DNA of 64,000 nt, taken from assembly GCF_058153355.1 (NCBI RefSeq), contig NZ_CM177019.1; one strand, given 5' to 3'. Made by a program: the position numbers and the translations under genes. The notes beneath the pieces were generated by a model. The model ran no database searches and had not been told where the DNA came from. It saw only the letters and a program-made list of their open reading frames with translations. Below are positions 28,101 to 54,753 of this stretch, piece by piece (position 1 is the stretch's first letter; each line of letters starts with the position of its first letter).

Positions 28101-28751
28101 TTAATTTGATTTATTCGCATCCATCAACGCTTTTAACTGCTCCGGCGAAAACGGTGGTTTGCGTCGGTGCAACATCGCATGGCAATTAGGGCACACAGGA
28201 AGCAAATCATTAACTGGATCCAGCTGGTAATCCTCTTTAATGGCTGAAAGCGGCACCAGGTGATGCACATGGATAAAGCCTTCAGCGATATCACCATAGA
28301 TCTTCACCAGATCAACGCCGCATACTTTGCACTGGCATCCATGATGTTCGACCGCTTTATCTCGGGCCTTTTTATCGCGTTCATAGCGGTTTACTGTCAC
28401 CTTTATCGCCGCACCTTCAAGGTATGTCTCCTGCGACGGCAACTCATCCGGGAACAGAACGTCGGCTATGGGAGCCGCAGCGGCTTTATCCTGATGAATA
28501 TGAAATCCCTGCTCTATGAGTAGTTTGACGCATTTAGATTTTATTCCGCCGGTGAAATCCGCAGGGGTAAATTGCGTCCCCGTCATCAATGTCGCTGCGA
28601 TGCCAGCAATCGCCTTCGAGGGGTAACGTCGGCCATGATATTCAATCTCATACAACCGCGCAGGCTGGAACTGATGAGTTTCTCCCGCATCCCATAAATG
28701 GATAGCTTCGATGATATACCGCCGCGGAAGATGATCAGGGAGTTTATTCAT
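28101..28751 (-). CDS. HNH-family endonuclease (216 aa) with an uncharacterised N-terminal domain
   Basis: C-terminal CxxC...HVHHLVPLS...N...CPNCH zinc-finger/HNH motif; N-terminal ~130 aa not recognised; convergent with nanS (7-bp gap). Confidence 0.7.
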   Translation of the reverse strand: MNKLPDHLPRRYIIEAIHLWDAGETHQFQPARLYEIEYHGRRYPSKAIAGIAATLMTGTQFTPADFTGGIKSKCVKLLIEQGFHIHQDKAAAAPIADVLFPDELPSQETYLEGAAIKVTVNRYERDKKARDKAVEHHGCQCKVCGVDLVKIYGDIAEGFIHVHHLVPLSAIKEDYQLDPVNDLLPVCPNCHAMLHRRKPPFSPEQLKALMDANKSN

Positions 28752-28887
28752 GGAGAATGTCCTTATACGTTCTCAGAACAGGCAGCAAAAAAACAAATGA
28801 GATCAAGGTAATATATCTTCACTTGCAGGCTTGAACAGCAGAAAATTTGCGAGCATGATCGCAATTATTTCACTGCCAGGGATATCA

Positions 28888-29760
28888 ATGGCTTCCAGTA
28901 AATCGCTACAGCAGGCAATTGCCAACATAAAAATCTGGCACAAGGGTGAACAGCGCGCGCCGCATAAGCCATTGTTACTGCTATACGTATTAGCGGGATA
29001 CCTGAATGGACATCCGCGCCTTTTCGATTATGGCTCGGAAATCTACGAACCTCTGCACAGTTTACTGGAACGTTTTGGGCCACAGCGTTCACAGTACCGA
29101 CCTGATATGTCGTTCTGGCGATTACAAGGCGACGGATTCTGGCAATTACACAATGCCGAACTTTGCTCAACAGCAGGGAGTAGCCGACAACCGCCAGTGA
29201 AGGAACTGACCGAACACCGCGTTGCAGGCGGTTTCGATGAACAGCACTATGCCCTGGTAATCGGCAATAAAAAACTCATCAATACCCTAGCGCAACAGAT
29301 ACTCGAAGCGCACTTCACCGAGAGCATTCAGGAAGAAATTGCTGACGAGCTGGGTTTTGATCTCCAGCAAATCCGTAAACAGCGCGACCCGTTATTTCGC
29401 AAAAATGTATTACGCGCTTATAAATACCAGTGCGCGATATGTGGCTTTAATATGCGCCACGACGACACCACCGTCGCGTTGGAAGCGGCGCATATAAAAT
29501 GGAAACAGCACGGCGGTCCTTGTGAAATTCCTAATGGCCTGGCGCTTTGTGCAATACACCATAAAGCCTTTGATAAAGGATCGATTGGCCTGGATGAAAA
29601 TATGCGGGTACTGGTCTCGGATGCGGTAAACGGCGGAGGGATCGTTGAGAAACTATTCTGGGATTTTGACGGGAAAACTATTGCGTTACCACAGGTGCGT
29701 AAAAATTACCCTTTTGAGGGGTTTGTGGAGTGGCATCGAAAAGAGGTTTTTAGGGGGTGA
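28888..29760 (+). CDS. HNH nuclease-domain protein (~290 aa from ATG at 28888; ORF track begins at a TTG at 28831), candidate modification-dependent restriction endonuclease
   Basis: C-terminal CAICGF...EAAHIKW...NGLALCAIHHKAFD motif resembling the HNH_2-type nuclease fold; AGGGA Shine-Dalgarno before 28888; N-terminal domain unassigned. Confidence 0.65.
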   Translation: MASSKSLQQAIANIKIWHKGEQRAPHKPLLLLYVLAGYLNGHPRLFDYGSEIYEPLHSLLERFGPQRSQYRPDMSFWRLQGDGFWQLHNAELCSTAGSSRQPPVKELTEHRVAGGFDEQHYALVIGNKKLINTLAQQILEAHFTESIQEEIADELGFDLQQIRKQRDPLFRKNVLRAYKYQCAICGFNMRHDDTTVALEAAHIKWKQHGGPCEIPNGLALCAIHHKAFDKGSIGLDENMRVLVSDAVNGGGIVEKLFWDFDGKTIALPQVRKNYPFEGFVEWHRKEVFRG

Positions 29761-29761
29761 G

Positions 29762-29817
29762 GTAGGCTATCTTGTGCATACAAATAGACAAATAAATTGT
29801 ATAAAGAGATAGCCTAC
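29762..29817. terminator. Inverted repeat (GTAGGCTATCT ... AGATAGCCTAC) between convergent genes; possible bidirectional terminator
   Basis: 11-bp perfect inverted repeat with ~34-nt AT-rich loop seen in sequence. Confidence 0.3.
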
Positions 29818-29822
29818 AAATA

Positions 29823-31133
29823 CTAAATAAATTCAGCCCCACTAGGAAAACGCAACTCTGATGTCTGTAAACTCTCGCCAATAAAGAAAGGTACAACCCA
29901 TAAACGTAACCTATTTTCCTTCTGATGGCTAAATTCATAAGGATGAGGAGATGGCTGATTAAATCCGTTATGATAGGGGTATATCAAAATCATATCACCT
30001 TCCCCCTCCTGGTAATTCAATCCATAGGCAAGCATTTGGTAGAGATCGGCTTGAGATTGCTCAAGACTGTCCTTTCTGCCATTAACTATCTTCCATTTAA
30101 CATCACAGGTAATAACTGAACCAGTAGTACTTTTACGAGGCCGTAAACAAATATCAGGCCGCAGCTTAAATAAAGCTTTACCGTTATAACTAATCAGATT
30201 TTTTGAACTTACCTGTGCGTCCACTCGCCATTTATCATAATAACGATAACGCATCCATGTCGTCACAAAAGATTCAAAAACAGCCTCCATCGGGAAAAGC
30301 AGTGAAAAAGCATTAACATCCCCATACATACAGTGTGGAGAATCGCCCAATAAAATCATCTTCGCCCACGCTAATGCTTGCTCATAGTGATGCATTTGTC
30401 TATCAAAGTGTAACTGCTCGAAAGCTATATAAGCATCATGAACTGACGTGATATTTTCAAAGTGAAACTGCAGCTGTGTTATCTGCTGTAATAATTGTGG
30501 ATTACTGGTCTGGCGACTAATCTTATTGATTGCAGTTTTGAGTATCCGGTTTTCCAGACGATTGACGCTGTACTCGTCATACTCTACCTGAAAACGATCC
30601 CGCCTAATACAGTTTTTGCTTAATTGTGCAGAGATCCGTAATCTTCCTTTCATCCATGGAAGATTATCTTCCTGACGTAAATAGTCACGTTTTAACCCTC
30701 TCTGCACAATCTTACGCACGCTCTCTATAAATTGTTGAATAAAGATATCCATCAGAGGCATTTTAGATATTTTGACGCCAGATTCAGAGGAGGCAATATG
30801 ACGAAATGATTTTAACGTACGTAACATCATCAGTAATTGTTGACGAACAGTATCCTCATTATCCTGACCTGTTTTAGGCAGGATTTCGAGAAATCGCCCC
30901 CCTGGCAGTGAGATTACTCCTGCATAGTTTTTTACCTGCAGCGTTTTTACTCCATTCCGGCTGCTAAGGGTGAGCAAACGATGAGTATTATCAGCATCGT
31001 CTTTCAGACAGCGCAGCTCAAGCCATTTAAATAGGTCTGCAGGTAGCACTACCGCATTATTTATACGGGCATCACCTTCCTCACTCACTAAATGCCCGTA
31101 TTCGAACACAGTGAAATGACTGGAAGATTTCAT
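29823..31133 (-). CDS. McrC-like nuclease subunit of a McrBC-type modification-dependent restriction system (start at MKSSSHF; ORF track TTG start at 31199)
   Basis: ATG overlaps the stop of the upstream McrB-like gene (ATGA overlap); size and position typical of McrC; sequence is not the K-12 McrC. Confidence 0.7.
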   Translation of the reverse strand: MKSSSHFTVFEYGHLVSEEGDARINNAVVLPADLFKWLELRCLKDDADNTHRLLTLSSRNGVKTLQVKNYAGVISLPGGRFLEILPKTGQDNEDTVRQQLLMMLRTLKSFRHIASSESGVKISKMPLMDIFIQQFIESVRKIVQRGLKRDYLRQEDNLPWMKGRLRISAQLSKNCIRRDRFQVEYDEYSVNRLENRILKTAINKISRQTSNPQLLQQITQLQFHFENITSVHDAYIAFEQLHFDRQMHHYEQALAWAKMILLGDSPHCMYGDVNAFSLLFPMEAVFESFVTTWMRYRYYDKWRVDAQVSSKNLISYNGKALFKLRPDICLRPRKSTTGSVITCDVKWKIVNGRKDSLEQSQADLYQMLAYGLNYQEGEGDMILIYPYHNGFNQPSPHPYEFSHQKENRLRLWVVPFFIGESLQTSELRFPSGAEFI

Positions 31134-33184
31134 TCCGCACTCCTGCGTTTTTCTTTTTGAGGTGCATAAATTTGCTGCCAGGCGATTGGATTGTCCCAAA
31201 CGTTGTCATCCTCTGCTGCCAGGTGAAAACTGGTTCCCAAGTCATCTGTTCCGTTATCACCAAAGAGATCGGCATACTTTTTCTGGTATTTCACCTCACG
31301 TACAAATTGAAGATCTGGTGCTTCCTCTTTTTGGTTATCAGCCAGTACCATGCGAATTTTTTGCCAGTCATTGTAAAAATATTCTTCCAGCAATGGTAGT
31401 ATCTTATTTCGCATAATCCGTTTGAATCTTTCAAATGCCAGAGCTTCGTCTTCTTTTGCCTGCACAACAGGGATAAAAAAAGCATGCCCCAGCATATGTT
31501 CTCTATCGTATAAAACCTGGATGCGATCGTTAAGCGTCTGCAATAGACGAGGCAGATCAATACCTTTAATGACAGTATCTTTCAGAACAGTAATATCTGG
31601 CAGCATCGCTTCAAAATCAAATCTGCGACGTAGTGCAGTATCAAGTGCAGTAAGCGAATGATCAGCAGTGTTCATGGTACCAATTAAATAAAGGTTATTC
31701 GGTACACTAAATGGAGTGGAAGAGTATGGCAGCAATACGCTAAGCGATTCTGGCTCACCAGCCCGTTTAGATGGCTCAATAAGGGTAATTAGTTCACCAA
31801 AAATTTTTGAAATATTACCCCGATTTATTTCATCAATAATGAGAACATAGTTTTCCTTTTTTTCTGAAGCTACGCTCTGAGTATTCAGAGGCAGATAACG
31901 TTGATTAATTAAATAGTTAAGGATACTGCGTACATAAGATGGATTATGTACTTTTGCTCGTGGATCCTGATAAACTTGCCGAATATCCTTCAAATAGGCA
32001 TTGTAACCCTGTCCTAAATCCTCTTTTTTCGATTGTGACGGAAAAATTCCAAAGTTGGTTTGACTTTTATACGTCAGCTGGAAGGCCTTACCCTGTTGTG
32101 TTTCCAGCGTGATATTTTCACCTTCAGATAAACGTTCTTGTAGGCGAGTAAGTGCGCTATCCAACATTTCCTGCGCACCAGCATGACCAAAGGCGGCATC
32201 CTCGCATATCTGTTTAAAAATACCTGCCTTTATTTCGTATTTTACATTACCGTCATCAGTAGTCTCAGCTCTTAAACCTTCAATAAACTCTTCATAACCA
32301 AAGCTCTGATGAAAGGTGATAAAACGCACTCGATTATCTTTGATAAGCTGATCATAAATCTTTTTCAACTCGCGACGTTTTTCACTCTCATCCTTACCCT
32401 CCTGCAGGGAGTAAGCGATCGGATCACAAATTTGTACAGCAAGCTCAATAGTACGATATGTTTTACCTGTACCTGGCGGGCCATAGAGAATTGTGTTTTT
32501 AGGCAATGGCGAACTTATAACATCATCTTCTTGCTCATTTTCTTGTAAAGCACTTTCGCTTCCAACTAAACCGATAGCATTTTTATCCTGAATTTCATAC
32601 GCATAGAGATGCCAAAGTGACATATTCAGCTCAATAGGGTCGATATCATCACCCAGCGCACGATTTAGCGTTTCTTTAAGATCAACATTGCGAGCCAGCC
32701 ACTCCCGTTCTCCGGAAAGACCTAGCTGGAAATGGTTGTTGCAATAATTGTAGCAACTAAAAAAATTATTAACATTCACGACACTGCTAATTTTTGATGG
32801 GTATATTGCTGCAAAAGCACGATTACAAAGAGCCCTATATACCTTATTTAATACTCCGTCCGCTTTAAGTTTGATAAGACGTTCAATGACCCGATTATAA
32901 TTTTCTTGTGTACACTCTTCTGCTATCTGACGGGTGAGCGTTAGAAGGTCTTTTTGTGCATTTTCAAATTCAACCAATGACATCCCACCTTGCATCAGGC
33001 TGGAGACACCATTGTCACGTTCATACCATACCTGCCGAATCGTGGCTTCAGAAAAGTTTGGTTTTTCGGCCTGAATCTGTTCTACAAGCTCGCGGTAGTG
33101 TTTGCCCCAAACTGAATTGTATTGATTATTTTTTTCAATTTGAGCACGAAAGAAGGGGGCTAATGCTGATGAATCCTGAACCAT
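31130..33184 (-). CDS. McrB-like AAA+ GTPase subunit (684 aa) with a divergent ~230-aa N-terminal domain
   Basis: Walker A LYGPPGTGKTY and McrB-signature MNTADHS...RRRF motifs; N-terminal region has no resemblance to the K-12 McrB DNA-binding domain. Confidence 0.78.
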   Translation of the reverse strand: MVQDSSALAPFFRAQIEKNNQYNSVWGKHYRELVEQIQAEKPNFSEATIRQVWYERDNGVSSLMQGGMSLVEFENAQKDLLTLTRQIAEECTQENYNRVIERLIKLKADGVLNKVYRALCNRAFAAIYPSKISSVVNVNNFFSCYNYCNNHFQLGLSGEREWLARNVDLKETLNRALGDDIDPIELNMSLWHLYAYEIQDKNAIGLVGSESALQENEQEDDVISSPLPKNTILYGPPGTGKTYRTIELAVQICDPIAYSLQEGKDESEKRRELKKIYDQLIKDNRVRFITFHQSFGYEEFIEGLRAETTDDGNVKYEIKAGIFKQICEDAAFGHAGAQEMLDSALTRLQERLSEGENITLETQQGKAFQLTYKSQTNFGIFPSQSKKEDLGQGYNAYLKDIRQVYQDPRAKVHNPSYVRSILNYLINQRYLPLNTQSVASEKKENYVLIIDEINRGNISKIFGELITLIEPSKRAGEPESLSVLLPYSSTPFSVPNNLYLIGTMNTADHSLTALDTALRRRFDFEAMLPDITVLKDTVIKGIDLPRLLQTLNDRIQVLYDREHMLGHAFFIPVVQAKEDEALAFERFKRIMRNKILPLLEEYFYNDWQKIRMVLADNQKEEAPDLQFVREVKYQKKYADLFGDNGTDDLGTSFHLAAEDDNVWDNPIAWQQIYAPQKEKRRSAE

Positions 33185-33542
33185 CTCTTAATCCAATATG
33201 TAGGGGGGAGGGAAATTGGGATAGCCTTATCTTATCGGATTAATCTCAAAAATGTTAAATTTTATGATAAAAAAAAACTTTCATCCTGAAATTACCTTCT
33301 GCCCTGGAGCCGCCACATTTATCTGATGACTTTGAACTGCAAAACGCATGGTGTTGGTGGTTCTCAGAGAAGGCCATAGCATTCTTTCAGACGTAAAATC
33401 GCTACTCGTTTTTCAACCTGTGTGCATTTTCTAGTTGCATAGGGAATCAACTGTTTTTCAGGTAGGTATTGTTTACAGTAAATGGATATGCCGAAATTCA
33501 GAGGGTTCCAGTAACGACATTTTGACAGCAAACATACGACAT

Positions 33543-34376
33543 TCATTTTGCTGATAACGCTGACGGATAGTGCTTCGCCACAATGTCATTCATCTTATCC
33601 ACCAGATCCAGTCGCTTGAATGTGATGTGTCCACTGCCTTTCTGGTAATAGCGGATGACAAATAAATCGTCATTAAATACCTGCTCATGCGGGTGAGCAC
33701 TAACGAAGTCCATAAACCGAATCGCAACATCATGCCGGTTATCGGGAATGGCCTTCCCATCCAGCAGATAGAACATCCGTTCCAGATCGGCAAGCTGATC
33801 TCGCCGCCAGCCCCAGTGCAGGCTGTAACCCCATCGGTCATGCTTCACCAGATTGTTAACGATAATCTTCTTACCGAAATAACAGGGATTATTGGTTTTG
33901 TAATCCCAGCTCAATCCCTTAAATACATTGATAATCCCACGTTCGAAAACGTCATGCTTATTGTGGTGGAGTTGTTCAAAGGTACTCAGGATGTTGGCTT
34001 CGCTAATCGCCGGGAGATCGCCCTCCTCCAGGTTCTTTGCCCACTGACTGCGGGCTTCGGCATCCATCAGAGTCAACATCCCGGACTTCAGCATGAGATC
34101 GCGCCAGATGCTGCGATCGATATTGCGGGTGATCGCCGACATCGCTTTGTCGGTTGGTTGCATCAGCCAGCAGTCAAAGGCATATCCATTACGCATTCCC
34201 CAGGTTCCAGCCACATCACCGCCAATACTGGATGTCAGACTGGAGATATCATCCAGTTTTTGGATTAGCGTCGCTATCAGCTTCAGTGCGCTATCACGTC
34301 CTGTGACGATACGCTCAATATTGGTCGAGCGAATTATCTCGTTGTGATCGGTTAAGACTTCAGCTTCTGTTTGCAT
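33543..34376 (-). CDS. Hypothetical protein (277 aa), same strand and upstream of the McrBC-like pair; possibly a DUF4942-type protein (low confidence)
   Basis: Uninterrupted ORF, no recognised catalytic motif; located inside the defence island. Confidence 0.5.
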   Translation of the reverse strand: MQTEAEVLTDHNEIIRSTNIERIVTGRDSALKLIATLIQKLDDISSLTSSIGGDVAGTWGMRNGYAFDCWLMQPTDKAMSAITRNIDRSIWRDLMLKSGMLTLMDAEARSQWAKNLEEGDLPAISEANILSTFEQLHHNKHDVFERGIINVFKGLSWDYKTNNPCYFGKKIIVNNLVKHDRWGYSLHWGWRRDQLADLERMFYLLDGKAIPDNRHDVAIRFMDFVSAHPHEQVFNDDLFVIRYYQKGSGHITFKRLDLVDKMNDIVAKHYPSALSAK

Positions 34377-34682
34377 AATCTTTCATCCGTAAAAAAATAC
34401 ACTCGCCGTTAGTAGCAGACGGATTATCCTCTGGTGAAAGATTGGGTAAATAATGAGATTGAAAATCGGGAAGGTGACTCGCAATAAATTATCTGATCAC
34501 CTACGGATGGACGATGGGCATATAAAATAGCCTCCTGACTCAAACGGTGAATGCTGAATAAGATGCACTAACAATCTGGTACTGAATCCCCTCCTCACCG
34601 TCATACAAATCTGAAAAACCAAAAAACTTCCGGTAAAATCCCGGCAAAAGCCGACGTTAAAAACACATTCAAAGGATAAAAA

Positions 34683-36239
34683 ATGACCAGTCTTCAGCAG
34701 CGCGCGGAGCTTCATCGCCAAATCTGGCAAATTGCTAACGATGTCAGAGGTTCGGTCGATGGATGGGATTTTAAGCAATACGTTCTGGGCGCGCTTTTCT
34801 ACCGTTTTATCAGCGAAAATTTTTCCAGCTATATTGAAGCCGGTGATGACAGCATCTGTTATGCGAAACTGGATGACAGCGTAATTACTGATGACATTAA
34901 AGACGATGCCATCAAAACCAAAGGCTACTTCATCTACCCAAGTCAGCTTTTCTGCAACGTAGCTGCGAAAGCAAATACCAATGACAGACTGAACGCAGAT
35001 TTAAACAGCATCTTCGTTGCTATCGAAAGTTCTGCTTACGGTTACCCTTCAGAAGCTGACATCAAAGGTTTGTTTGCTGATTTCGATACCACCAGTAACC
35101 GCCTGGGTAATACCGTTAAGGATAAAAATGCCCGCCTGGCCGCGGTTCTGAAAGGGGTTGAAGGGTTAAAGCTTGGCGACTTTAACGAACATCAGATTGA
35201 CCTGTTCGGCGATGCCTATGAGTTCCTGATTTCTAACTATGCGGCGAATGCCGGTAAGTCAGGCGGCGAGTTCTTTACACCGCAGCACGTCTCTAAGCTG
35301 ATTGCACAACTGGCTATGCACGGGCAGACCCACGTTAACAAAATCTACGACCCGGCAGCGGGTTCCGGTTCGCTGTTGTTGCAGGCTAAAAAGCAGTTTG
35401 ATGACCACATCATCGAAGAAGGTTTTTTTGGTCAGGAAATCAACCATACGACCTATAACCTGGCGCGTATGAACATGTTTTTGCACAACATCAACTACGA
35501 CAAGTTTGATATCAAGTTGGGCAATACGCTGACTGAGCCGCACTTCAGAGATGAAAAACCGTTTGACGCCATCGTATCTAACCCACCGTATTCGGTGAAA
35601 TGGATAGGCAGCGATGACCCGACGCTGATTAACGATGAACGTTTTGCCCCGGCTGGCGTCCTGGCCCCCAAATCAAAAGCTGACTTCGCCTTTGTACTAC
35701 ATGCGCTGAACTATCTTTCTGCCAAAGGTCGTGCTGCGATTGTCTGCTTCCCGGGTATTTTTTACCGTGGCGGCGCAGAGCAGAAAATCCGTCAGTATCT
35801 GGTTGATAATAACTATGTCGAAACCGTGATTTCACTGGCTCCGAACCTGTTCTTTGGCACCACCATTGCCGTCAATATTCTGGTGTTGTCTAAACATAAA
35901 ACCGATACCAAAGTTCAGTTTATTGACGCCAGCGAACTATTCAAAAAAGAGACTAACAACAACATTCTGACCGATGCCCATATCGAACAGATTATGCAGG
36001 TATTTGCCAGCAAGGAAGATGTTGCTCATCTGGCGAAATCTGTCGCGTTTGAGACCGTTGTCGCTAATGACTATAACCTGTCGGTAAGCAGCTATGTGGA
36101 AGCGAAAGATAACCGCGAAATTATCGATATCAGTGAGCTGAATGCTGAGCTGAAAACCACGGTCAGCAAAATCGACCAGTTGCGTAAAGATATTGATGCG
36201 ATTGTGGCTGAAATTGAAGGCTGCGAGGTGCAGAAATGA
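34683..36239 (+). CDS. hsdM: Type I restriction-modification system methyltransferase subunit HsdM (type IC, EcoR124-like)
   Basis: 518 aa; N6-adenine MTase motifs ([10 protein letters not shown] motif I; IVSNPPYS motif IV); closely resembles recalled EcoR124I HsdM. Confidence 0.93.
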
Positions 36240-37390
36240 ACGAGTTGAGTTATCTGGAAAAATTACTGGATGGGGTTGAGGTTGAGTGGTTGCCATTGGC
36301 TAAAGTTTGTCGTTTAATAAACGGGAGAGCATATAAGCAAGAAGAACTGCTTTCCAAAGGCAAATATCCAGTATTAAGAGTCGGTAATTTTTTTACTAAC
36401 CAAAATTGGTATTACTCAGATTTAGAATTAGATCAAGACAAGTATTGTGATAACGGTGACCTTTTATATGCTTGGTCCGCATCATTTGGTCCAAGAATTT
36501 GGCATGGGGGTAAATCTATTTACCATTATCACATATGGAAAGTGGTTCCAGATTCGAATCTTATTTGTAAACAGTTTCTATATTACTTGTTACAATGGGA
36601 TACTAAAGCACTTAAAGATGCACATAGCACTGGTTCTACTATGATGCACATCAGCAAAACTACAATTGAAAAAAGGTTAGTCCCCATCCCCTGCCCGGAT
36701 AATCCGGAAAAATCCCTTGCCATCCAGTCTGAAATCGTTCGGATTCTGGATAAATTTACTGCACTTACCGCTGAGCTTACCGCTGAGCTTAATATGCGAA
36801 AAAAACAGTACAACTACTATCTCGACCAGTTACTGAATCTTGAGGGTAGGGAAAATACTCGAGAAATGAGGATAGGTGATATTTATGATTTTCAGTATGG
36901 AACAGGCAATACAATTCCTAAATCTGGAGGGCAATATCCTGTTTATGGTAGCAACGGGATTGTAGGCTCCCATGACAAATATAACAGCGAAGACTCACCT
37001 GTTATTGGCCATATAGGTGCTTACGCAGGAATCGTTAACTGGGGCCAGGGTAAGCATTTTGTTACATACAACGGAGTTATTTGTAGGCACAAATCGAAGG
37101 AAGTTCTTCAAAAATACGCCTACTATTTATTACTTTTACAAGATTTCGGTTCAAAATCTAATAGTGCATCACAGCCTTTTGTTTCATATAACATATTAAA
37201 TGCTCCTATTGTTTTGGTTCCCCCTTTACAAGAGCAAGCTCGTATCGTCGCAATACTCGATAAATTCGACACCCTGACCAACTCCATCACCGAAGGTCTT
37301 CCGCGTGAAATCGAGTTGCGCCAGAAACAATACGAGTACTATCGTGATTTACTGTTCAGTTTCCCAAAACCTGAAACTCTCAGTAATTAA
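36236..37390 (+). CDS. hsdS: Type I R-M specificity subunit HsdS (type IC) with two target-recognition domains
   Basis: 384 aa; conserved central ([35 protein letters not shown]) and C-terminal ([33 protein letters not shown]) type IC regions flanking variable TRDs; 4-bp overlap with hsdM. Confidence 0.9.
36764..36787 (+). repeat. Two tandem copies of a 12-bp unit (CTTACCGCTGAG) encoding TAEL-TAEL in the HsdS central conserved region
   Basis: Perfect 12-bp tandem duplication seen in sequence; in type IC systems the copy number of this repeat sets the spacer length of the recognition site. Confidence 0.85.
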
Positions 37391-37511
37391 TTGACCATTA
37401 TTACAGACCGGACCATCTTAATATCCGGTCAGTATATAGACTATTTTTTACACGCCGGAAGTCACCATTAACCCCCTTCCGGCCCTTGCCAGACGGCACA
37501 AAGGATGCGCT

Positions 37512-40500
37512 ATGACTCATCAAACACACACCATTGCTGAATCCAATAACTTTATCGTTCTTGATAAGTACATCAAAGCTGAGCAAACAGGCGACAGCTA
37601 TCAGAGCGAATCGGACCTGGAACGTGAACTGATTCAGGACCTGCAAAATCAGGGCTATGAATTTATACCCGTAAAATCACAGTCAGCGATGCTGGCCAAC
37701 GTTCGGGAACAGCTTCAGAGCCTCAATGGTGTGGTGTTTAATGACAGCGAGTGGCGGCGTTTCACGGAGCAGTATCTGGATAACCCGAGCGATGGCATTC
37801 TGGATAAGACCCGTAAAATCCATATCGACTATATTTGCGACTTTATTTTTGATGACGAGCGACTTGAGAACATCTATTTGATAGATAAAAAGAATCTCAT
37901 GCGCAATAAGGTGCAGATTATCCAGCAGTTTGAACAGGCGGGTTCCCACTCTAACCGCTATGATGTCACGATCCTGATTAATGGCTTACCACTGGTACAA
38001 ATCGAACTGAAAAAGCGCGGCGTGGCGATTCGTGAGGCTTTCAACCAGATACATCGTTACAGTAAAGAGAGTTTTAACAGCGAAAATTCCCTGTTTAAGT
38101 ATCTGCAACTGTTTGTCATTTCTAACGGCACCGATACCCGTTACTTTGCCAACACCACAAAGCGCGATAAAAATAGTTTTGACTTCACCATGAACTGGGC
38201 GAAATCAGACAACACGCTGATTAAAGACCTCAAAGATTTTACCGCTACCTTTTTCCAGAAACATACTCTGCTTAATGTTCTGGTGAACTACAGCGTGTTC
38301 GATATTAGCCAGACGCTACTGGTGATGCGACCGTACCAGATTGCCGCCACCGAACGAATCTTATGGAAAATCAACAGCTCCTATAAAGCGAAAAACTGGT
38401 CTACCCCCGAAAGCGGTGGCTTTATCTGGCACACCACCGGTTCCGGTAAAACCCTGACCAGCTTTAAAGCTGCGCGTCTGGCAACAGAGCTGGACTTTAT
38501 TGATAAAGTCTTCTTCGTGGTCGACAGAAAAGACCTCGATTACCAGACCATGAAGGAATATCAGCGTTTTTCGCCAGATAGTGTTAACGGTTCGGAAAAT
38601 ACCGCAGGCCTGAAACGAAATCTGGATAAGGACGATAACAAAATTATCGTCACCACTATTCAGAAACTTAATAACCTGATGAAAGCAGAAAGCGACCTGC
38701 CTGTATACAATCAGCAAGTGGTGTTTATATTTGATGAATGTCACCGCAGCCAGTTTGGAGAAGCGCAGAAAAACCTGAAGAAGAAATTCAAACGCTATTA
38801 TCAGTTTGGTTTTACCGGCACACCTATTTTCCCGGAAAACGCTTTAGGCTCAGAAACGACCGCCAGCGTATTTGGTCGTGAATTGCATTCGTATGTGATT
38901 ACCGATGCGATTCGTGATGAAAAAGTGCTCAAATTCAAGGTGGACTATAACGATGTGCGGCCACAATTTAAGTCTTTAGAGACAGAAACCGACGAGAAAA
39001 AACTGAGTGCGGCTGAAAATCAGCAGGCGTTTCTTCATCCCATGCGTATACAGGAAATTACGCAATATATTCTGAATAACTTCCGCCAGAAGACCCACCG
39101 TACTTTCCCAGGTTCCAAAGGCTTTAATGCCATGCTGGCAGTGAGTAGCGTGGATGCCGCGAAAGCCTATTACGCGACGTTTAAACGGTTACAAGAGGAA
39201 GCCGCTAATAAATCTGCTACCTATAAACCACTACGTGTTGCGACAATCTTCTCCTTTGCCGCTAATGAAGAACAAAATGCCATTGGTGAAATTTCCGATG
39301 AAACTTTTGATACCAGCGCAATGGACAGCAGTGCTAAAGAGTTTCTCGACGCTGCAATTCGTGAATATAACAGCTATTTTAAAACTAACTTCAGTACCGA
39401 CAGTAACGGTTTTCAGAACTACTATCGTGATTTAGCCCAACGGGTTAAAAATCAGGATATCGATCTGTTAATTGTCGTTGGGATGTTTTTAACCGGCTTC
39501 GACGCTCCAACATTGAACACGCTATTCGTCGATAAAAACTTGCGTTTTCACGGCCTGATGCAGGCATTTTCCCGCACCAACCGCATTTATGACGCCACTA
39601 AAACCTTCGGTAACATCGTCACTTTTCGGGATCTGGAACGCTCAACCATTGATGCCATAACGCTGTTTGGTGATAAAAATACCAAAAATGTGGTGTTAGA
39701 AAAGAGTTATGCCGAGTATATGGAAGGCTTTACAGATGCTGCCACTGGTGAAGCTAAACGCGGCTTTATGGCAGTAGTTTCAGAACTGGAACAACGGTTC
39801 CCTGACCCTGCCAGTATTGAAAGTGAAAAAGAGAAGAAAGACTTCGTTAAACTGTTTGGTGAATACCTGCGCGCCGAGAACATCCTGCAAAACTATGATG
39901 AATTTGCCACGCTGAAAGCCCTGCAACAAATCGATCTTAGCGATCCTGTTGCGGTAGAAAAATTCAAAGCAGAACATTATGTGGATGATGAAAAGTTTGC
40001 TGAATTACAAACGATTCGTCTCCCTGCTGAACGTAAGATTCAGGATTATCGTTCGGCCTATAACGATATTCGTGACTGGCAGCGCCGCGAGAAAGAAGCT
40101 GACAAAAAAGAAAAATCAACCACTGACTGGGATGACGTGGTTTTTGAGGTCGATTTGCTGAAGTCTCAGGAAATAAACCTGGATTATATCCTTGGACTGA
40201 TTTTCGAACACAACAGACAAAACAAAGGTAAGGGCGAAATGACCGAAGAGGTCAAACGCTTAATTCGTTCGAGCCTTGGGAACCGTGCCAAAGAAGGCCT
40301 GGTGGTCGATTTTATTCAACAAACGAACCTGGATGATTTGCCGGATAAAGCCAGTATCATTGACGCGTTCTTTATCTTTGCTCAACGCGAACAGCAACGT
40401 GAAGCAGAAGCGTTGATTAAAGAAGAAAATCTCAATGAAGAAGCAGCGAAACGCTATATTCGCACGTCTTTAAAACGCGAATACGCCACCGAAAATGGCA

Positions 40501-40628
40501 CAGAATTAAACGAGACGTTACCAAAACTTAGTCCGTTAAACCCGCAATATAAAACGAAAAAACAGACGGTTTTCCAGAAGATCGTCGCGTTTATTGAGAA
40601 GTTTAAAGGTGTAGGCGGGCAGATATAA
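37512..40628 (+). CDS. hsdR: Type I restriction enzyme R subunit HsdR (type IC, EcoR124-like), 1038 aa
   Basis: SF2 helicase motifs ([24 protein letters not shown]) and N-terminal nuclease region; near-identical over long stretches to recalled EcoR124I HsdR. Confidence 0.93.
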
Positions 40629-40852: not shown

Positions 40853-40937
40853 TGGTGCCGAAGGCCGGACTCGAACCGGCACGTATTTCTACGGTTGATT
40901 TTGAATCAACTGCGTCTACCGATTTCGCCACTTCGGC
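40853..40937 (-). tRNA. leuX: tRNA-Leu (anticodon CAA), leuX
   Basis: 85-nt sequence on the minus strand matches recalled leuX (GCCGAAGTGGCGAAATCGGTAGACGCAGTTGATTCAAAATCAACCGTAGAAATACGTGCCGGTTCGAGTCCGGCCTTCGGCACCA); its 3' end faces the island. Confidence 0.95.
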
Positions 40938-41132: not shown

Positions 41133-42218
41133 ATGTCGATGATAAAAAGCTATGCCGCAAAAGAGGCTGGCGGCAAACTGGAAGTTTATGAGTACGATCC
41201 CGGTGAACTGAAGCCACAAGATGTCGAAGTGCAGGTGGATTACTGCGGGATCTGCCATTCCGATCTGTCGATGATCGACAACGAATGGGGATTTTCACAG
41301 TATCCGCTGGTTGCCGGGCATGAGGTGATTGGGCGCGTGGTGGCGCTCGGGAGCGCCGCGCAGGATAAAGGTTTGCAGGTCGGTCAGCGTGTCGGGATTG
41401 GCTGGACGGCGCGAAGCTGTGGTCACTGCGATGCCTGTATTAGCGGTAATCAGATCAACTGCGAGCAAGGTGCGGTGCCAACAATTATGAATCGCGGCGG
41501 TTTTGCCGAGAAGTTGCGTGCAGACTGGCAATGGGTGATTCCACTGCCGGAAAATATCGATATCGATTCCGCCGGGCCGCTGCTGTGTGGTGGTATCACG
41601 GTCTTCAAACCACTGTTAATGCACCATATCACTGCCACCAGCCGCGTTGGGGTAATTGGTATTGGCGGGCTGGGGCATATCGCTATAAAACTTCTGCACG
41701 CAATGGGATGCGAGGTAACGGCCTTTAGTTCTAATCCGGCGAAAGAGCAGGAAGTGCTGGCGATGGGTGCCGATAAAGTAGTGAATAGCCGCGATCCGCA
41801 GGCACTGAAAGCACTGGCGGGGCAGTTTGATCTCATTATCAACACCGTCAACGTCAGCCTCGACTGGCAGCCTTATTTTGAGGCGCTGACGTATGGCGGT
41901 AATTTCCATACAGTCGGCGCGGTCCTCACGCCGCTGTCTGTTCCGGCCTTTACGTTAATTGCGGGCGACCGCAGCGTCTCTGGTTCAGCAACAGGTACAC
42001 CTTATGAGCTGCGTAAGCTGATGCACTTTGCCGCCCGCAGCAAGGTTGCGCCGACTACCGAACTGTTCCCTATGTCGAAAATTAACGACGCCATTCAGCA
42101 TGTACGCGATGGTAAAGCGCGCTACCGAGTGGTCCTGAAAGCCGACTTCTGCTCCCTTTGCCGGGTGCCTGTCGCCCGGCTTTTAAATCTCTTTGGAAGG
42201 CGTCTCGCAATCTGCTGA
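41133..42218 (+). CDS. ahr: NADPH-dependent aldehyde reductase Ahr (YjgB), with a 22-codon C-terminal extension relative to the 339-aa K-12 protein
   Basis: Zn-dependent alcohol dehydrogenase family (GHEVIG, GxGGLG); start at [14 protein letters not shown]; no stop after ...VVLKADF. Confidence 0.88.
42160..42184 (+). terminator. Intrinsic terminator-like hairpin (GCCGGG-loop-CCCGGC followed by TTTT) lying inside the extended ahr reading frame
   Basis: 6-bp GC stem plus T tract seen in sequence. Confidence 0.5.
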
Positions 42219-42281
42219 ATTTAGCGGTGAAGAGTGCGCAGCCGTTGCCTATACTCCAGGCAGGAAACTGGAGGAAATCTC

Positions 42282-43784
42282 ATGAGCGAACCCCTGTTAA
42301 TTGCCCGCACGCCGGACACAGAACTGTTTTTACTGCCGGGAATGGCTAACCGTCACGGGCTGATTACTGGCGCAACGGGGACGGGTAAAACCGTTACGCT
42401 GCAAAAACTGGCAGAGTCATTGTCGGAAATCGGTGTTCCGGTGTTTATGGCCGATGTGAAAGGTGATTTAACGGGAGTAGCGGAGGAAGGTACATCTTCG
42501 GAAAAACTGCTCGCAAGGCTGAAAAATATCGGCGTCAATGACTGGCAACCACATGCTAATCCGGTGGTGGTGTGGGATATCTTTGGCGAGAAAGGCCACC
42601 CGGTGCGGGCGACGCTTTCAGACCTGGGGCCGCTGTTGCTGGCGCGACTGTTGAATCTCAACGATGTGCAATCTGGCGTGCTGGATATCATCTTCCGCAT
42701 TGCTGATGATCAGGGGCTGTTACTGCTCGACTTTAAAGATTTGCGGGCGATTACCCAGTACATCGGCGATAACGCCAAATCCTTCCAGAATCAGTACGGT
42801 AATATCAGTAGCGCATCGGTTGGTGCCATCCAGCGCGGGCTGTTATCGCTGGAACAGCAAGGCGCAGCACACTTCTTTGGTGAGCCGATGCTGGATATCA
42901 AAGACTGGATGCGTACCGATACCAACGGTAAAGGCGTTATCAATATCCTCAGCGCCGAGAAGCTTTATCAGATGCCGAAACTGTACGCCGCCAGCCTGCT
43001 GTGGATGCTTTCAGAGTTATATGAACAATTGCCTGAAGCGGGCGATCTGGAGAAACCAAAACTGGTGTTTTTCTTCGACGAAGCACATCTGCTGTTTAAC
43101 GATGCACCGCAGGTACTGCTGGATAAGATTGAGCAGGTGATAAGGCTTATTCGCTCAAAAGGCGTGGGCGTCTGGTTCGTTTCGCAAAACCCGTCAGATA
43201 TCCCGGATAACGTGCTCGGGCAGCTCGGTAATCGCGTTCAACACGCTTTGCGTGCTTTTACGCCTAAAGATCAGAAAGCAGTAAAAGCTGCGGCGCAAAC
43301 CATGCGGGCCAATCCGGCGTTTGATACCGAAAAGGCAATCCAGGAACTGGGGACCGGCGAGGCGTTAATCTCGTTTCTCGATGCGAAAGGAAGCCCTTCA
43401 GTGGTGGAACGGGCGATGGTGATTGCCCCCTGTTCACGAATGGGGCCGGTGACGGAAGATGAGCGTAACGGCCTGATTAATAACTCCCCGGTGTATGGCA
43501 AGTACGAGGATGACGTGGACCGGGAATCCGCCTATGAGATGTTGCAAAAAGGCTTTCAGGCCAGTACCGAGCAGCAAAATAATCCTCCCGCGAAAGGGAA
43601 AGAGGTGGCGGTGGATGACGGTATTCTTGGTGGATTGAAGGATATTTTGTTTGGCACTACCGGACCACGCGGCGGGAAGAAAGATGGTGTGGTGCAAACA
43701 ATGGCGAAAAGCGCCGCCCGCCAGGTGACGAATCAGATTGTGCGTGGTGTGCTGGGGAGTTTGCTGGGGGGGAGAAGAAGGTAA
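42282..43784 (+). CDS. yjgR: DUF853-family P-loop NTPase YjgR (start at [12 protein letters not shown])
   Basis: 500 aa; Walker A GATGTGKT; synteny. Confidence 0.85.
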
Positions 43785-46390: not shown

Positions 46391-47905
<1,515 letters not shown>

Positions 47906-51416: not shown

Positions 51417-52190
51417 TTACAGAAATGGTAAAGAAGGCATAACTCCCCGAGAAATACTGGCTAAGAAGCCTTTATCTGGTTGTTCTTCTTTATTGATTAA
51501 AGGAAGGTCATCCAAATCGCCCAGCAAATACGTATTTTTTGCCTGCCAGTCAATCATCCATATTTTCAACAGTGGATAAGCCAGACCGCCCGTAATCCCG
51601 GATATCACCACCAACGCACACATGCGATAAAGCATACCGTGGTACGTTAAAGTTGAGCGAAAACGAATACGCCCATCATTCAGTGACAGGTTGCTCATAA
51701 AATGGTTTCGCAACGACACCGTTAAATAACTGGTGCTAACAGCAATCCCAAAATAATAGATTAACTGCGCGATTATCATTTTACGTTGCATTTCCATAAA
51801 TTGCTGTAAATTCTCAATGTCATCATTTGCATATACAGAACTATCATACGCATTTAATATTTGATCGAAGATAATATAACCAGCAACAGCGAGAAAAGGC
51901 AATAAAGCTAAAAATGCGAGAATGGCATATTTTATACAATACGTAGTATCTAATTTCACCTTGAAACGATGTATACCGAAACTGGTATTGCTCCAGAGAA
52001 AACTCATTACCAGACTATATAAAGTACCATTAAAAATACCAATGGAAACAATACCAACTATTGCCATCAGAACCATAGATATAATAACACTACTTGAACT
52101 ATTGGCATGTAGCATCTTTGTCGAGATAAAGAAAACAGTCCCCATCCCAACGGCCATTAAAATCGGCAAGAAAAAGGTCACCCACCAGAG
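51417..52190 (-). pseudogene. yjgN: yjgN C-terminal fragment (DUF898 inner membrane protein), separated from its 5' part by IS4
   Basis: Reading frame continuous with the fragment at 53617-54057 once the 1426-bp IS4 and one copy of the 12-bp duplication are removed. Confidence 0.8.
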
Positions 52191-53616
52191 TAATGCCGAT
52201 CAGTTAAGGATCAGTTGACCGATCCAGTGGCTGTGTAAGAATCCGGAAACGCTCACTTGTTTCCGGATTTTTTTATGCACATTGGACAGGCTCTTGATCT
52301 GGTATCCCGTTACGATTCTCTGCGTAACCCACTGACTTCTCTGGGGGATTACCTCGACCCCGAACTCATCTCTCGTTGCCTTGCCGAATCAGGTACTGTA
52401 ACGCTACGCAAGCGCCGTCTTCCCCTCGAAATGATGGTCTGGTGTATTGTTGGCATGGCGCTTGAGCGTAAAGAACCTCTTCACCAGATTGTGAATCGCC
52501 TGGACATCATGCTGCCGGGCAATCGCCCCTTCGTTGCCCCCAGTGCCGTTATTCAGGCCCGCCAGCGCCTGGGAAGTGAGGCTGTCCGCCGCGTGTTCAC
52601 GAAAACAGCGCAGCTCTGGCATAACGCCACGCCGCATCCGCACTGGTGCGGCCTGACCCTGCTGGCCATCGATGGTGTGTTCTGGCGCACACCGGATACA
52701 CCAGAGAACGATGCAGCCTTCCCCCGCCAGACACATGCCGGGAACCCGGCGCTCTACCCGCAGGTCAAAATGGTCTGCCAGATGGAACTGACCAGCCATC
52801 TGCTGACGGCTGCAGCCTTCGGCACGATGAAGAACAGCGAAAATGAGCTTGCTGAGCAACTTATAGAACAAACCGGCGATAACACTCTGACGTTAATGGA
52901 TAAAGGTTATTACTCACTGGGACTGTTAAATGCCTGGAGCCTGGCGGGAGAACACCGCCACTGGATGATACCTCTCAGAAAGGGAGCGCAATATGAAGAG
53001 ATCAGAAAACTGGGTAAAGGCGATCATCTGGTGAAGCTGAAAACCAGCCCGCAGGCACGAAAAAAGTGGCCGGGACTGGGAAATGAAGTGACAGCCCGCC
53101 TGCTGACCGTGACGCGCAAAGGAAAAGTCTGCCATCTGCTGACGTCGATGACGGACGCCATGCGCTTCCCCGGAGGAGAAATGGCGGATCTGTACAGTCA
53201 TCGCTGGGAAATCGAACTGGGATACAGGGAGATAAAACAGACGATGCAACTGAGCAGGCTGACGCTGAGAAGTAAAAAGCCGGAGCTTGTGGAGCAAGAG
53301 CTGTGGGGTGTCTTACTGGCTTATAATCTGGTGAGATATCAGATGATTAAAATGGCGGAACATCTGAAAGGTTACTGGCCGAATCAACTGAGTTTCTCAG
53401 AATCATGCGGAATGGTGATGAGAATGCTGATGACATTGCAGGGCGCTTCACCGGGACGTATACCGGAGCTGATGCGCGATCTTGCAAGTATGGGACAACT
53501 TGTGAAATTACCGACAAGAAGGGAAAGGGCCTTCCCGAGAGTGGTAAAGGAGAGGCCCTGGAAATACCCCACAGCCCCGAAAAAGAGCCAGTCAGTTGCT
53601 TAACTGACTGGCATTA
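52191..53616 (+). mobile_element. IS4 insertion sequence, complete (1426 bp), imperfect terminal inverted repeats TAATGCCGATCAGTTAAGG / CTTAACTGACTGGCATTA, flanked by 12-bp direct repeat CACCCACCAGAG (52179-52190 and 53617-53628)
   Basis: Terminal inverted repeats, exact IS4 length and perfect 12-bp target-site duplication all seen in sequence. Confidence 0.93.
52275..53603 (+). CDS. insG: IS4 transposase (InsG), 442 aa from MHIGQALDL
   Basis: DDE transposase; sequence matches recalled IS4 InsG. Confidence 0.92.
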
Positions 53617-54057
53617 CACCCACCAGAGCCCTTTCATAGAGCAATTAAAACTAAATCTTACGCCGTTGAGACTGGTCATTAAGGCCTGATGACGCAGTCC
53701 TTTTGCTGCCATAAATATAAGCAAAACCAACAGTAACAAAGTCAAAACACAACCAACAAGCGGCATATCTGCTGACACTGTCATTAAGATTGCGAAATAG
53801 AAAAAAACAAAAACAAAAACAAGACAACTAACAAAAACATTCCCACCGGTAATTCCATAAGAAAATCGTTGTCCGTTAACTTCCATATTAGCATAAAGAT
53901 AACGCTTACATTTCATTAATGCCCATGGTAAATAGATACCTAACGTTATAATCGTTAACAACACATTCACCACACAAATAAGAAAATATCTCTCACCTGT
54001 ACCATGAAAAACAAACGAATGGGACGGAACATCCATTTCATTAATAACTTGAGCCAT
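53617..54057 (-). pseudogene. yjgN: yjgN N-terminal fragment (start MAQVINEMD), interrupted by IS4
   Basis: N-terminus of DUF898 membrane protein; reading frame runs into the IS4 right end. Confidence 0.8.
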
Positions 54058-54249: not shown

Positions 54250-54753
54250 ATGAATAACATTGCGCCGCAATCACCTGTAATGCGTCGCCTGACGCTGCAG
54301 GATAATCCTGCTATCGCCCGCGTCATTCGTCAGGTATCCGCCGAATACGGTCTTACCGCTGATAAAGGCTACACCGTCGCCGATCCGAATCTTGACGAGC
54401 TGTATCAAGTGTATAGTCAGCCTGGCCATGCATATTGGGTAGTTGAGTACGAGGGTGAAGTGGTCGGCGGCGGTGGGATAGCGCCATTAACCGGGAGTGA
54501 GTCGGACATTTGCGAACTGCAAAAGATGTATTTTCTTCCGGCTATCCGCGGCAAAGGGCTGGCAAAAAAACTGGCCTTAATGGCGATGGAGCAGGCGCGA
54601 GAGATGGGTTTCAAACGCTGCTATCTGGAAACGACAGCTTTTTTAAAGGAAGCCATTGCGCTTTATGAGCATTTGGGCTTTGAGCATATCGACTATGCGC
54701 TTGGCTGCACGGGCCATGTCGATTGTGAAGTACGGATGTTGCGCGAACTCTAA
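54250..54753 (+). CDS. yjgM: GNAT-family N-acetyltransferase YjgM
   Basis: 167 aa; acetyl-CoA binding motif (RGKGLAKKL). Confidence 0.85.

Follow-up and report, generated by a model that had tools for sequence, protein, structure and literature searches.

When an intrinsic terminator lies a few bp past a stop codon, the ribosome represses it almost completely; termination becomes maximally efficient only beyond approximately 30 bp from the stop, and terminators located late in coding regions are likewise repressed (PMC4824070). Extension of proteins by loss of a stop codon, in which C-termini are recruited from 3' non-coding sequence, has been described for eukaryotes (PMC4494051). For the E. 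coli aldehyde reductase Ahr, also named YjgB, EcYjgB bearing a C-terminal 6xHis tag could be expressed and purified, and it crystallised as a dimer; the same work describes the roles of the catalytic Zn ligands and of the structural Zn cysteines, and shows the NADP-contacting residues G327 and R332 to be close to the C-terminus (PMC7287880).

The window (the whole 64,000-nucleotide stretch of DNA that was analysed) carries an ahr gene that departs from the described form at its 3' end. We hold with high confidence that a genuine, vertically inherited A-to-C substitution at position 42152, present in one narrow clone of E. coli, has turned the TGA stop codon of ahr into a cysteine codon. So altered, the frame enters the ahr-yjgR spacer for 22 codons and crosses a hairpin there, and the product predicted from the open reading frame is a 361-residue Ahr whose tail is basic, hydrophobic and rich in Cys. 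Features of the region are listed in Table 1.

Table 1. Features at and around the ahr stop-loss site, in window coordinates
Feature	Coordinates	Strand	Evidence or remark
leuX tRNA-Leu(CAA), upstream of ahr	40853..40937	-	ARAGORN and Rfam
ahr core CDS, 339 codons ending KADF	41133..42149	+	NADPH-dependent aldehyde reductase Ahr/YjgB; NF047908, PDB 7bu2, RefSeq in references
ahr codon 145, GAT (Asp) in window; GAA (Glu) in sister assemblies and all references	41565..41567	+	second, window-private non-synonymous change
Former stop codon, now TGC (Cys340)	42150..42152	+	A-to-C at 42152; TGA in 4 references and 45/45 wild-type sequences
22-codon C-terminal extension from the ahr-yjgR spacer	42150..42215	+	translation
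GC-rich hairpin GCCGGGTG-CCTGT-CGCCCGGC then TTTT	42160..42184	+	putative intrinsic terminator, now inside the extended ORF; scan and fold
New stop TGA	42216..42218	+	two more in-frame stops at 42222 and 42228
yjgR (HerA-like / DUF853 ATPase)	42282..43784	+	co-directional, downstream; RefSeq annotation in references
Type I R-M system	hsdM 34683-36239, hsdS 36236-37390, hsdR 37512-40628		within defence cluster

Loss of the ahr stop codon

One open reading frame of the window ends at 42218, and the K-12-type Ahr start within it is at 41133, as read from the ORF list and the sequence. Codon 339 is TTC (Phe, 42147-42149), codon 340 is TGC (42150-42152), and translation continues through 21 further sense codons to the TGA at 42216-42218. 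The original prediction had described an ahr core of full 339-codon length that runs on into a 22-residue tail; both its positions and the tail were exact when compared with the sequence and the ORF list, and the tail does run across the hairpin at 42160-42180 before reaching the new stop. A point mutation had been proposed as the cause. Alignment of the ahr 3' end with three idn-less references (SA186, VE-V11-M and O157:H7 TR01) and one idn+ reference (BHUCD02) agrees with this: all four have TGA at the site where the window has TGC, RefSeq gives each of them an ahr of 1,020 nt at this location, and the single A-to-C change at 42152 is the sole window-private difference within the ahr-yjgR spacer. 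The A is also retained at the equivalent of 42152 in 45 of 45 other, wild-type sequences examined. Where the window has lost its stop, its relatives thus retain theirs, and a single base change accounts for the loss.

The length of the tail is close to what chance would give: on average the next stop is expected after approximately 20 codons, and a run of 22 or more has a probability of 0.35. The yjgR start lies 63 nt beyond the new ahr stop, which is itself followed by two further in-frame stops; the extension therefore produces neither a fusion with YjgR nor translational coupling to it.

The allele in independent sequence data

The window's exact YjgR protein is encoded on five public contigs, and sister assemblies were reached via this neighbouring protein; the form of the extended Ahr with E145 was found only by that route. 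The same TGC is present in the NCBI draft GCA_015332025.1 (7,503 nt) and in the Logan assembly of SRR28786219 (5,086 nt). Each has one mismatch to the window, at which both carry the same base, and the 361-residue Ahr of GCA_015332025.1 is recorded for two sequencing runs in their Logan assemblies. The stop-loss is thus reproduced in independent sequence data, and because TGC occurs in independent read sets, the sequencing error that the original prediction had offered as its alternative is refuted. An error of sequencing or assembly, with a true A at 42152 and an intact stop, would agree with the absence of the allele from complete genomes and metagenome contigs and with the lack of any record of the window's exact protein (both described below). 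It would be at odds with an identical TGC in two assemblies of different source, each of which is one base off the window elsewhere and is thus not a copy of it, with the calling of the 361-residue product in two Logan runs, and with a region free of indels or error-like noise. Its remaining probability is close to nil.

The surrounding sequence was compared with the nearest complete genome over nine flanking genes (yjgR, lptG, lptF, pepA, holC, valS, yjgM, rraB and argF). In these genes 180 codons differ synonymously and 22 non-synonymously and indels are absent, and ahr itself has 30-44 synonymous versus 3-6 non-synonymous differences. Even the complete E. coli genome that best matches this lineage is only approximately 98.4% identical to it. 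Judged by these codon comparisons, the divergence around ahr is natural and the assembly is clean.

The base that separates the window from its sister assemblies also falls in ahr, where E145D is the sole difference over 5-7.5 kb. The change is conservative and affects a position that is variable among homologues, and the chance of a single SNP landing in ahr by gene length alone is about 14%. It gives a weak hint of relaxed constraint on ahr.

Rarity and distribution

Complete E. coli genomes were searched by megablast with a 53-nt query centred on 42152, each 28-nt seed being forced to span the variant base; C was found at this position in none of the 5,426 genomes. A 25-mer containing TGC occurred on no metagenome contig, versus 43 contigs for the TGA 25-mer that served as positive control. 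Species-representative genomes scanned with N at the variant base gave no matches, but this result is uninformative, the E. coli representative evidently being one without the ahr-yjgR junction.

The protein record has the same character. Reference Ahr proteins with the same 22-residue tail had been named as contrary evidence by the original prediction; among the 7,159 Ahr homologues of a large protein collection, no cluster representative covers the tail. The homologues listed are nearly all of 339 residues, and each sequence retrieved ends in KADF, the canonical length and terminus from which the 361-residue protein of the window departs. Exact look-up of the window's own D145 form, at 361, 375 and 339 residues, found no record, and protein look-up likewise found none anywhere for the lineage's Ahr haplotype with a normal 339-residue end. 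The TGC allele is real, inherited, very rare and restricted to one clone. The datasets that carry it all derive from a single near-identical clone, and its persistence over evolutionary time is not implied.

The idn boundary

The idn+ and idn-less arrangements of E. coli genomes split directly after the ahr stop codon. In idn+ genomes, idnK ends, convergently, 3 nt from the ahr stop, and homology returns approximately 39 nt before the yjgR ATG; the hairpin-bearing spacer segment of about 90 bp (42153-42242) is exclusive to idn-less genomes. Since divergence begins right after the ahr stop in idn+ genomes, the boundary of the idn indel abuts that codon, and the original prediction had rightly placed the stop-loss at the junction where idn+ genomes such as K-12 hold the idn locus.

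A link between the mutation and the absence of idn, which comparison with other idn-less strains could reveal, is not supported. Most complete genomes (3,211 of 5,426) are idn-less, so that this arrangement has no tie to the mutation; none of the 3,211 has the C, and all keep TGA. Formation of the TGC at an alternative idn-deletion junction was also considered and rejected. The idnR-yjgR junction of UTI89 matches the window only from about 42243, the right idn+ junction of UTI89 offers no C followed by TCCCTTT, and the uniform TGA of the idn-less genomes is equally contrary to such an origin.

The hairpin and transcription termination

A scan for consensus terminator-like structures identifies the hairpin as an 8-bp stem (7 GC pairs) with a 5-nt loop, followed by TTTTAAATCT, and RNA folding returns the same hairpin with a centroid of -15.3 kcal/mol. 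No Rfam family matches within the ahr-yjgR spacer, and a consensus scan of the spacer found no consensus promoter. Among the 45 sequences the stem is conserved, except for one stem variant and a loop deletion. The T-tract of the window, TTTTAAATCTCTTT, passes the scan; in most strains its first positions read ACTT or GTTT. The bases after the stem (42181-42184) vary accordingly, with CACTT in the majority, CGTTT in seven sequences and the window-type CTTTT in 5 of 45. A 1-nt loop deletion or a T-to-A change in the stem is present in some strains, and terminator-like character differs between lineages.

The original prediction had ahr reading through "its own terminator". The conserved stem is in accord with that description; the polymorphic T-tract, and a stem that begins only 7 nt past the normal stop in wild-type idn-less strains, make it overstated. 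With such a T-tract the element would be at best a weak or optional terminator. Moreover, since the distance from stop to stem is already 7 nt in the wild type, moving the stop 64 nt downstream should alter termination little. We infer that the effect is small, since the footprint of a ribosome that has reached the normal stop would already cover the putative terminator.

The same geometry bears on whether the change could be adaptive or regulatory. Translation through the hairpin might block the terminator and raise co-transcription of ahr and yjgR, or the tail might provide a new interaction or localisation. The hairpin is now within the ORF, and ribosomes repress terminators in the late part of a coding region; yjgR is read in the same direction as ahr, with no consensus promoter found between them; and the tail has an amphipathic stretch. 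Such a role is nevertheless very improbable: with the stop 7 nt from the stem, repression is expected in the wild type as well, the polymorphic T-tract would make the terminator of most strains weak or optional, the allele is limited to a single clone without recurrence in 5,426 genomes, and the tail is as long as chance would make it. Equally slight is the probability that the stop-loss was selected in this clone, whether by abolishing residual termination and making ahr-yjgR an obligatory operon or by giving Ahr a new property through a Cys-rich amphipathic tail. Were selection to prove the explanation, the locus would be a natural example of a terminator rewired by moving a stop codon.

The predicted extended Ahr protein

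The NCBIfam equivalog model for Ahr, NF047908, matches residues 1-337 of the window protein with 553.2 bits (cut-off 470), and the match to PDB 7bu2, a chain of 347 residues, has an E value of 4e-231. The Zn ligands C41, H63, E64 and C152, together with C96, C99, C102 and C110, lie in invariant columns, the window included. The 339-codon core has no frameshift or internal stop and its catalytic residues are intact, features that do not fit a pseudogene. With a pI of 10.4 and a GRAVY of 0.98, the tail is basic and hydrophobic; it contains three Cys and includes an amphipathic stretch of 14 residues. An AF2 model of the 361-residue protein from 33 aligned sequences was of poor quality, its pLDDT averaging 62.5 overall and about 30 over the tail, and the placement of the tail is not readable from it.

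Because the enzyme was crystallised with a C-terminal tag, the C-terminus of Ahr evidently accepts additions. Unlike a His-tag, a hydrophobic tail of 22 residues with three Cys could bring misfolding, aggregation or proteolysis, and the nearness of the NADP contacts G327 and R332 to this end also counts against full tolerance. Considering the sequence of the core, the enzyme is most likely retained, perhaps somewhat impaired.

E. coli has many redundant aldehyde reductases, such as YqhD and YahK, and the loss of one of them should be tolerable. A functional knockout, in which the tail destabilises or aggregates Ahr or targets it for degradation and ahr is a young pseudogene under relaxed selection, would be compatible with this redundancy and with the hydrophobic, basic, three-Cys character of the tail. 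It would also be compatible with the invariance of the KADF end at residue 339 across Enterobacterales, with E145D as a second private non-synonymous change in ahr and the sole difference from the sister assemblies in 7.5 kb, and with the absence of a recorded ahr product for GCA_015332025.1. The intact catalytic and zinc-binding residues and the tolerated C-terminal tag speak against inactivation, and E145D, as a conservative change at a variable position with a chance of about 14% of falling in ahr by length, adds little to the case. Inactivation is a possibility to be kept in mind, and an unlikely one.

We favour instead an extended enzyme that still works. Its core would stay functional, given the intact catalytic and zinc residues and a C-terminus that tolerates a tag, and the effect on termination would be small, the hairpin being already inside the ribosome footprint at the normal stop. 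With both of these, it would follow that the allele is a private polymorphism, neutral or mildly deleterious, of the gene for a redundant aldehyde reductase, and not a designed feature.

The annotation of the gene in public data is uneven. In GCA_015332025.1 (contig AAXEGZ010000031.1, positions 1852-2937 of 7,503 nt) no ahr product is recorded, though the 361-codon ORF is intact, and in a Logan assembly of the same clone ahr is called as 361 residues; the NCBI pipeline may have marked the gene of the draft as a pseudogene. At 90% identity the 361-residue Ahr is clustered with YjgR proteins of 500 residues, which supply the representative and all the other members listed; this looks like an oddity of database clustering and not biology.

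Other features of the window

At 52179-53627, an IS4-family element of 1,427 bp (52190-53616; transposase ORF 52257-53603) is inserted in yjgN with an 11-bp target duplication, CACCCACCAGA; none of the complete E. coli genomes has an insertion at the same yjgN site. A Shigella-like, decaying genome was considered as a general explanation and set aside: the ORFs of the fim operon have reference lengths and the nine flanking core genes are intact, with the one IS4 insertion present.

Between the nanCMS genes and leuX lies a cluster of defence genes (28101-40628), comprising an HNH endonuclease, a restriction endonuclease for phosphorothioated DNA, McrBC-like genes, a DUF4942 gene and a complete type I R-M system (Table 1). 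No integrase adjoins leuX, and most of the cluster is common to approximately 160 complete genomes at about 97% identity. Among the flanking genes, yjgM (54250-54753) is only 91.3% identical to the reference, with 31 synonymous and 8 non-synonymous codon changes, versus 98-99% for its neighbours, and pepA (46394-47905) is 96.8% identical, with 48 synonymous and no non-synonymous changes. In both genes the pattern suggests a patch that was recombined or that diverged earlier.

Significance and comparison with known systems

By sequence criteria the ahr stop-loss is an ordinary lineage-private polymorphism, and not a recoding site, an attenuator or a pseudogene. It has little biological weight in itself, and is of interest as a clean, verified case of recent stop loss in an enzyme that is well characterised. 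It may offer a natural test case for the tolerance of E. coli to spacer-derived C-terminal tails, and possibly a test of the interplay between the position of a stop codon and a nearby terminator hairpin. For annotation, ahr should be called as a 361-residue Ahr variant; it is not an error and not necessarily a pseudogene.

Compared with Ahr/YjgB of K-12 (7BU2/7BU3, NF047908), the window protein has a 339-residue core that is approximately 98% identical, with the Zn ligands, NADP-binding motifs and dimerisation segments present, and both genes adjoin leuX. It differs in its length of 361 in place of 339 residues, owing to the change of TGA to TGC, and in E145D; the downstream neighbour is yjgR in the window and the convergent idnK in K-12. 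As in the described class of stop-loss extensions, one base change in the stop codon opens the former spacer to translation as far as the next in-frame stop, and the tail has a length near that of chance. The ahr allele differs in being very recent and clone-restricted, with no sign of fixation or selection. The hairpin and T-tract resemble the ribosome-repressed intrinsic terminators of Li et al. 2016 (PMC4824070) in lying within reach of a translating or terminating ribosome. In contrast to classical attenuation, the ahr hairpin is associated with neither a leader peptide nor an alternative antiterminator structure, no sign of regulation was seen, and its 7-nt geometry pre-exists in the wild-type idn-less strains.
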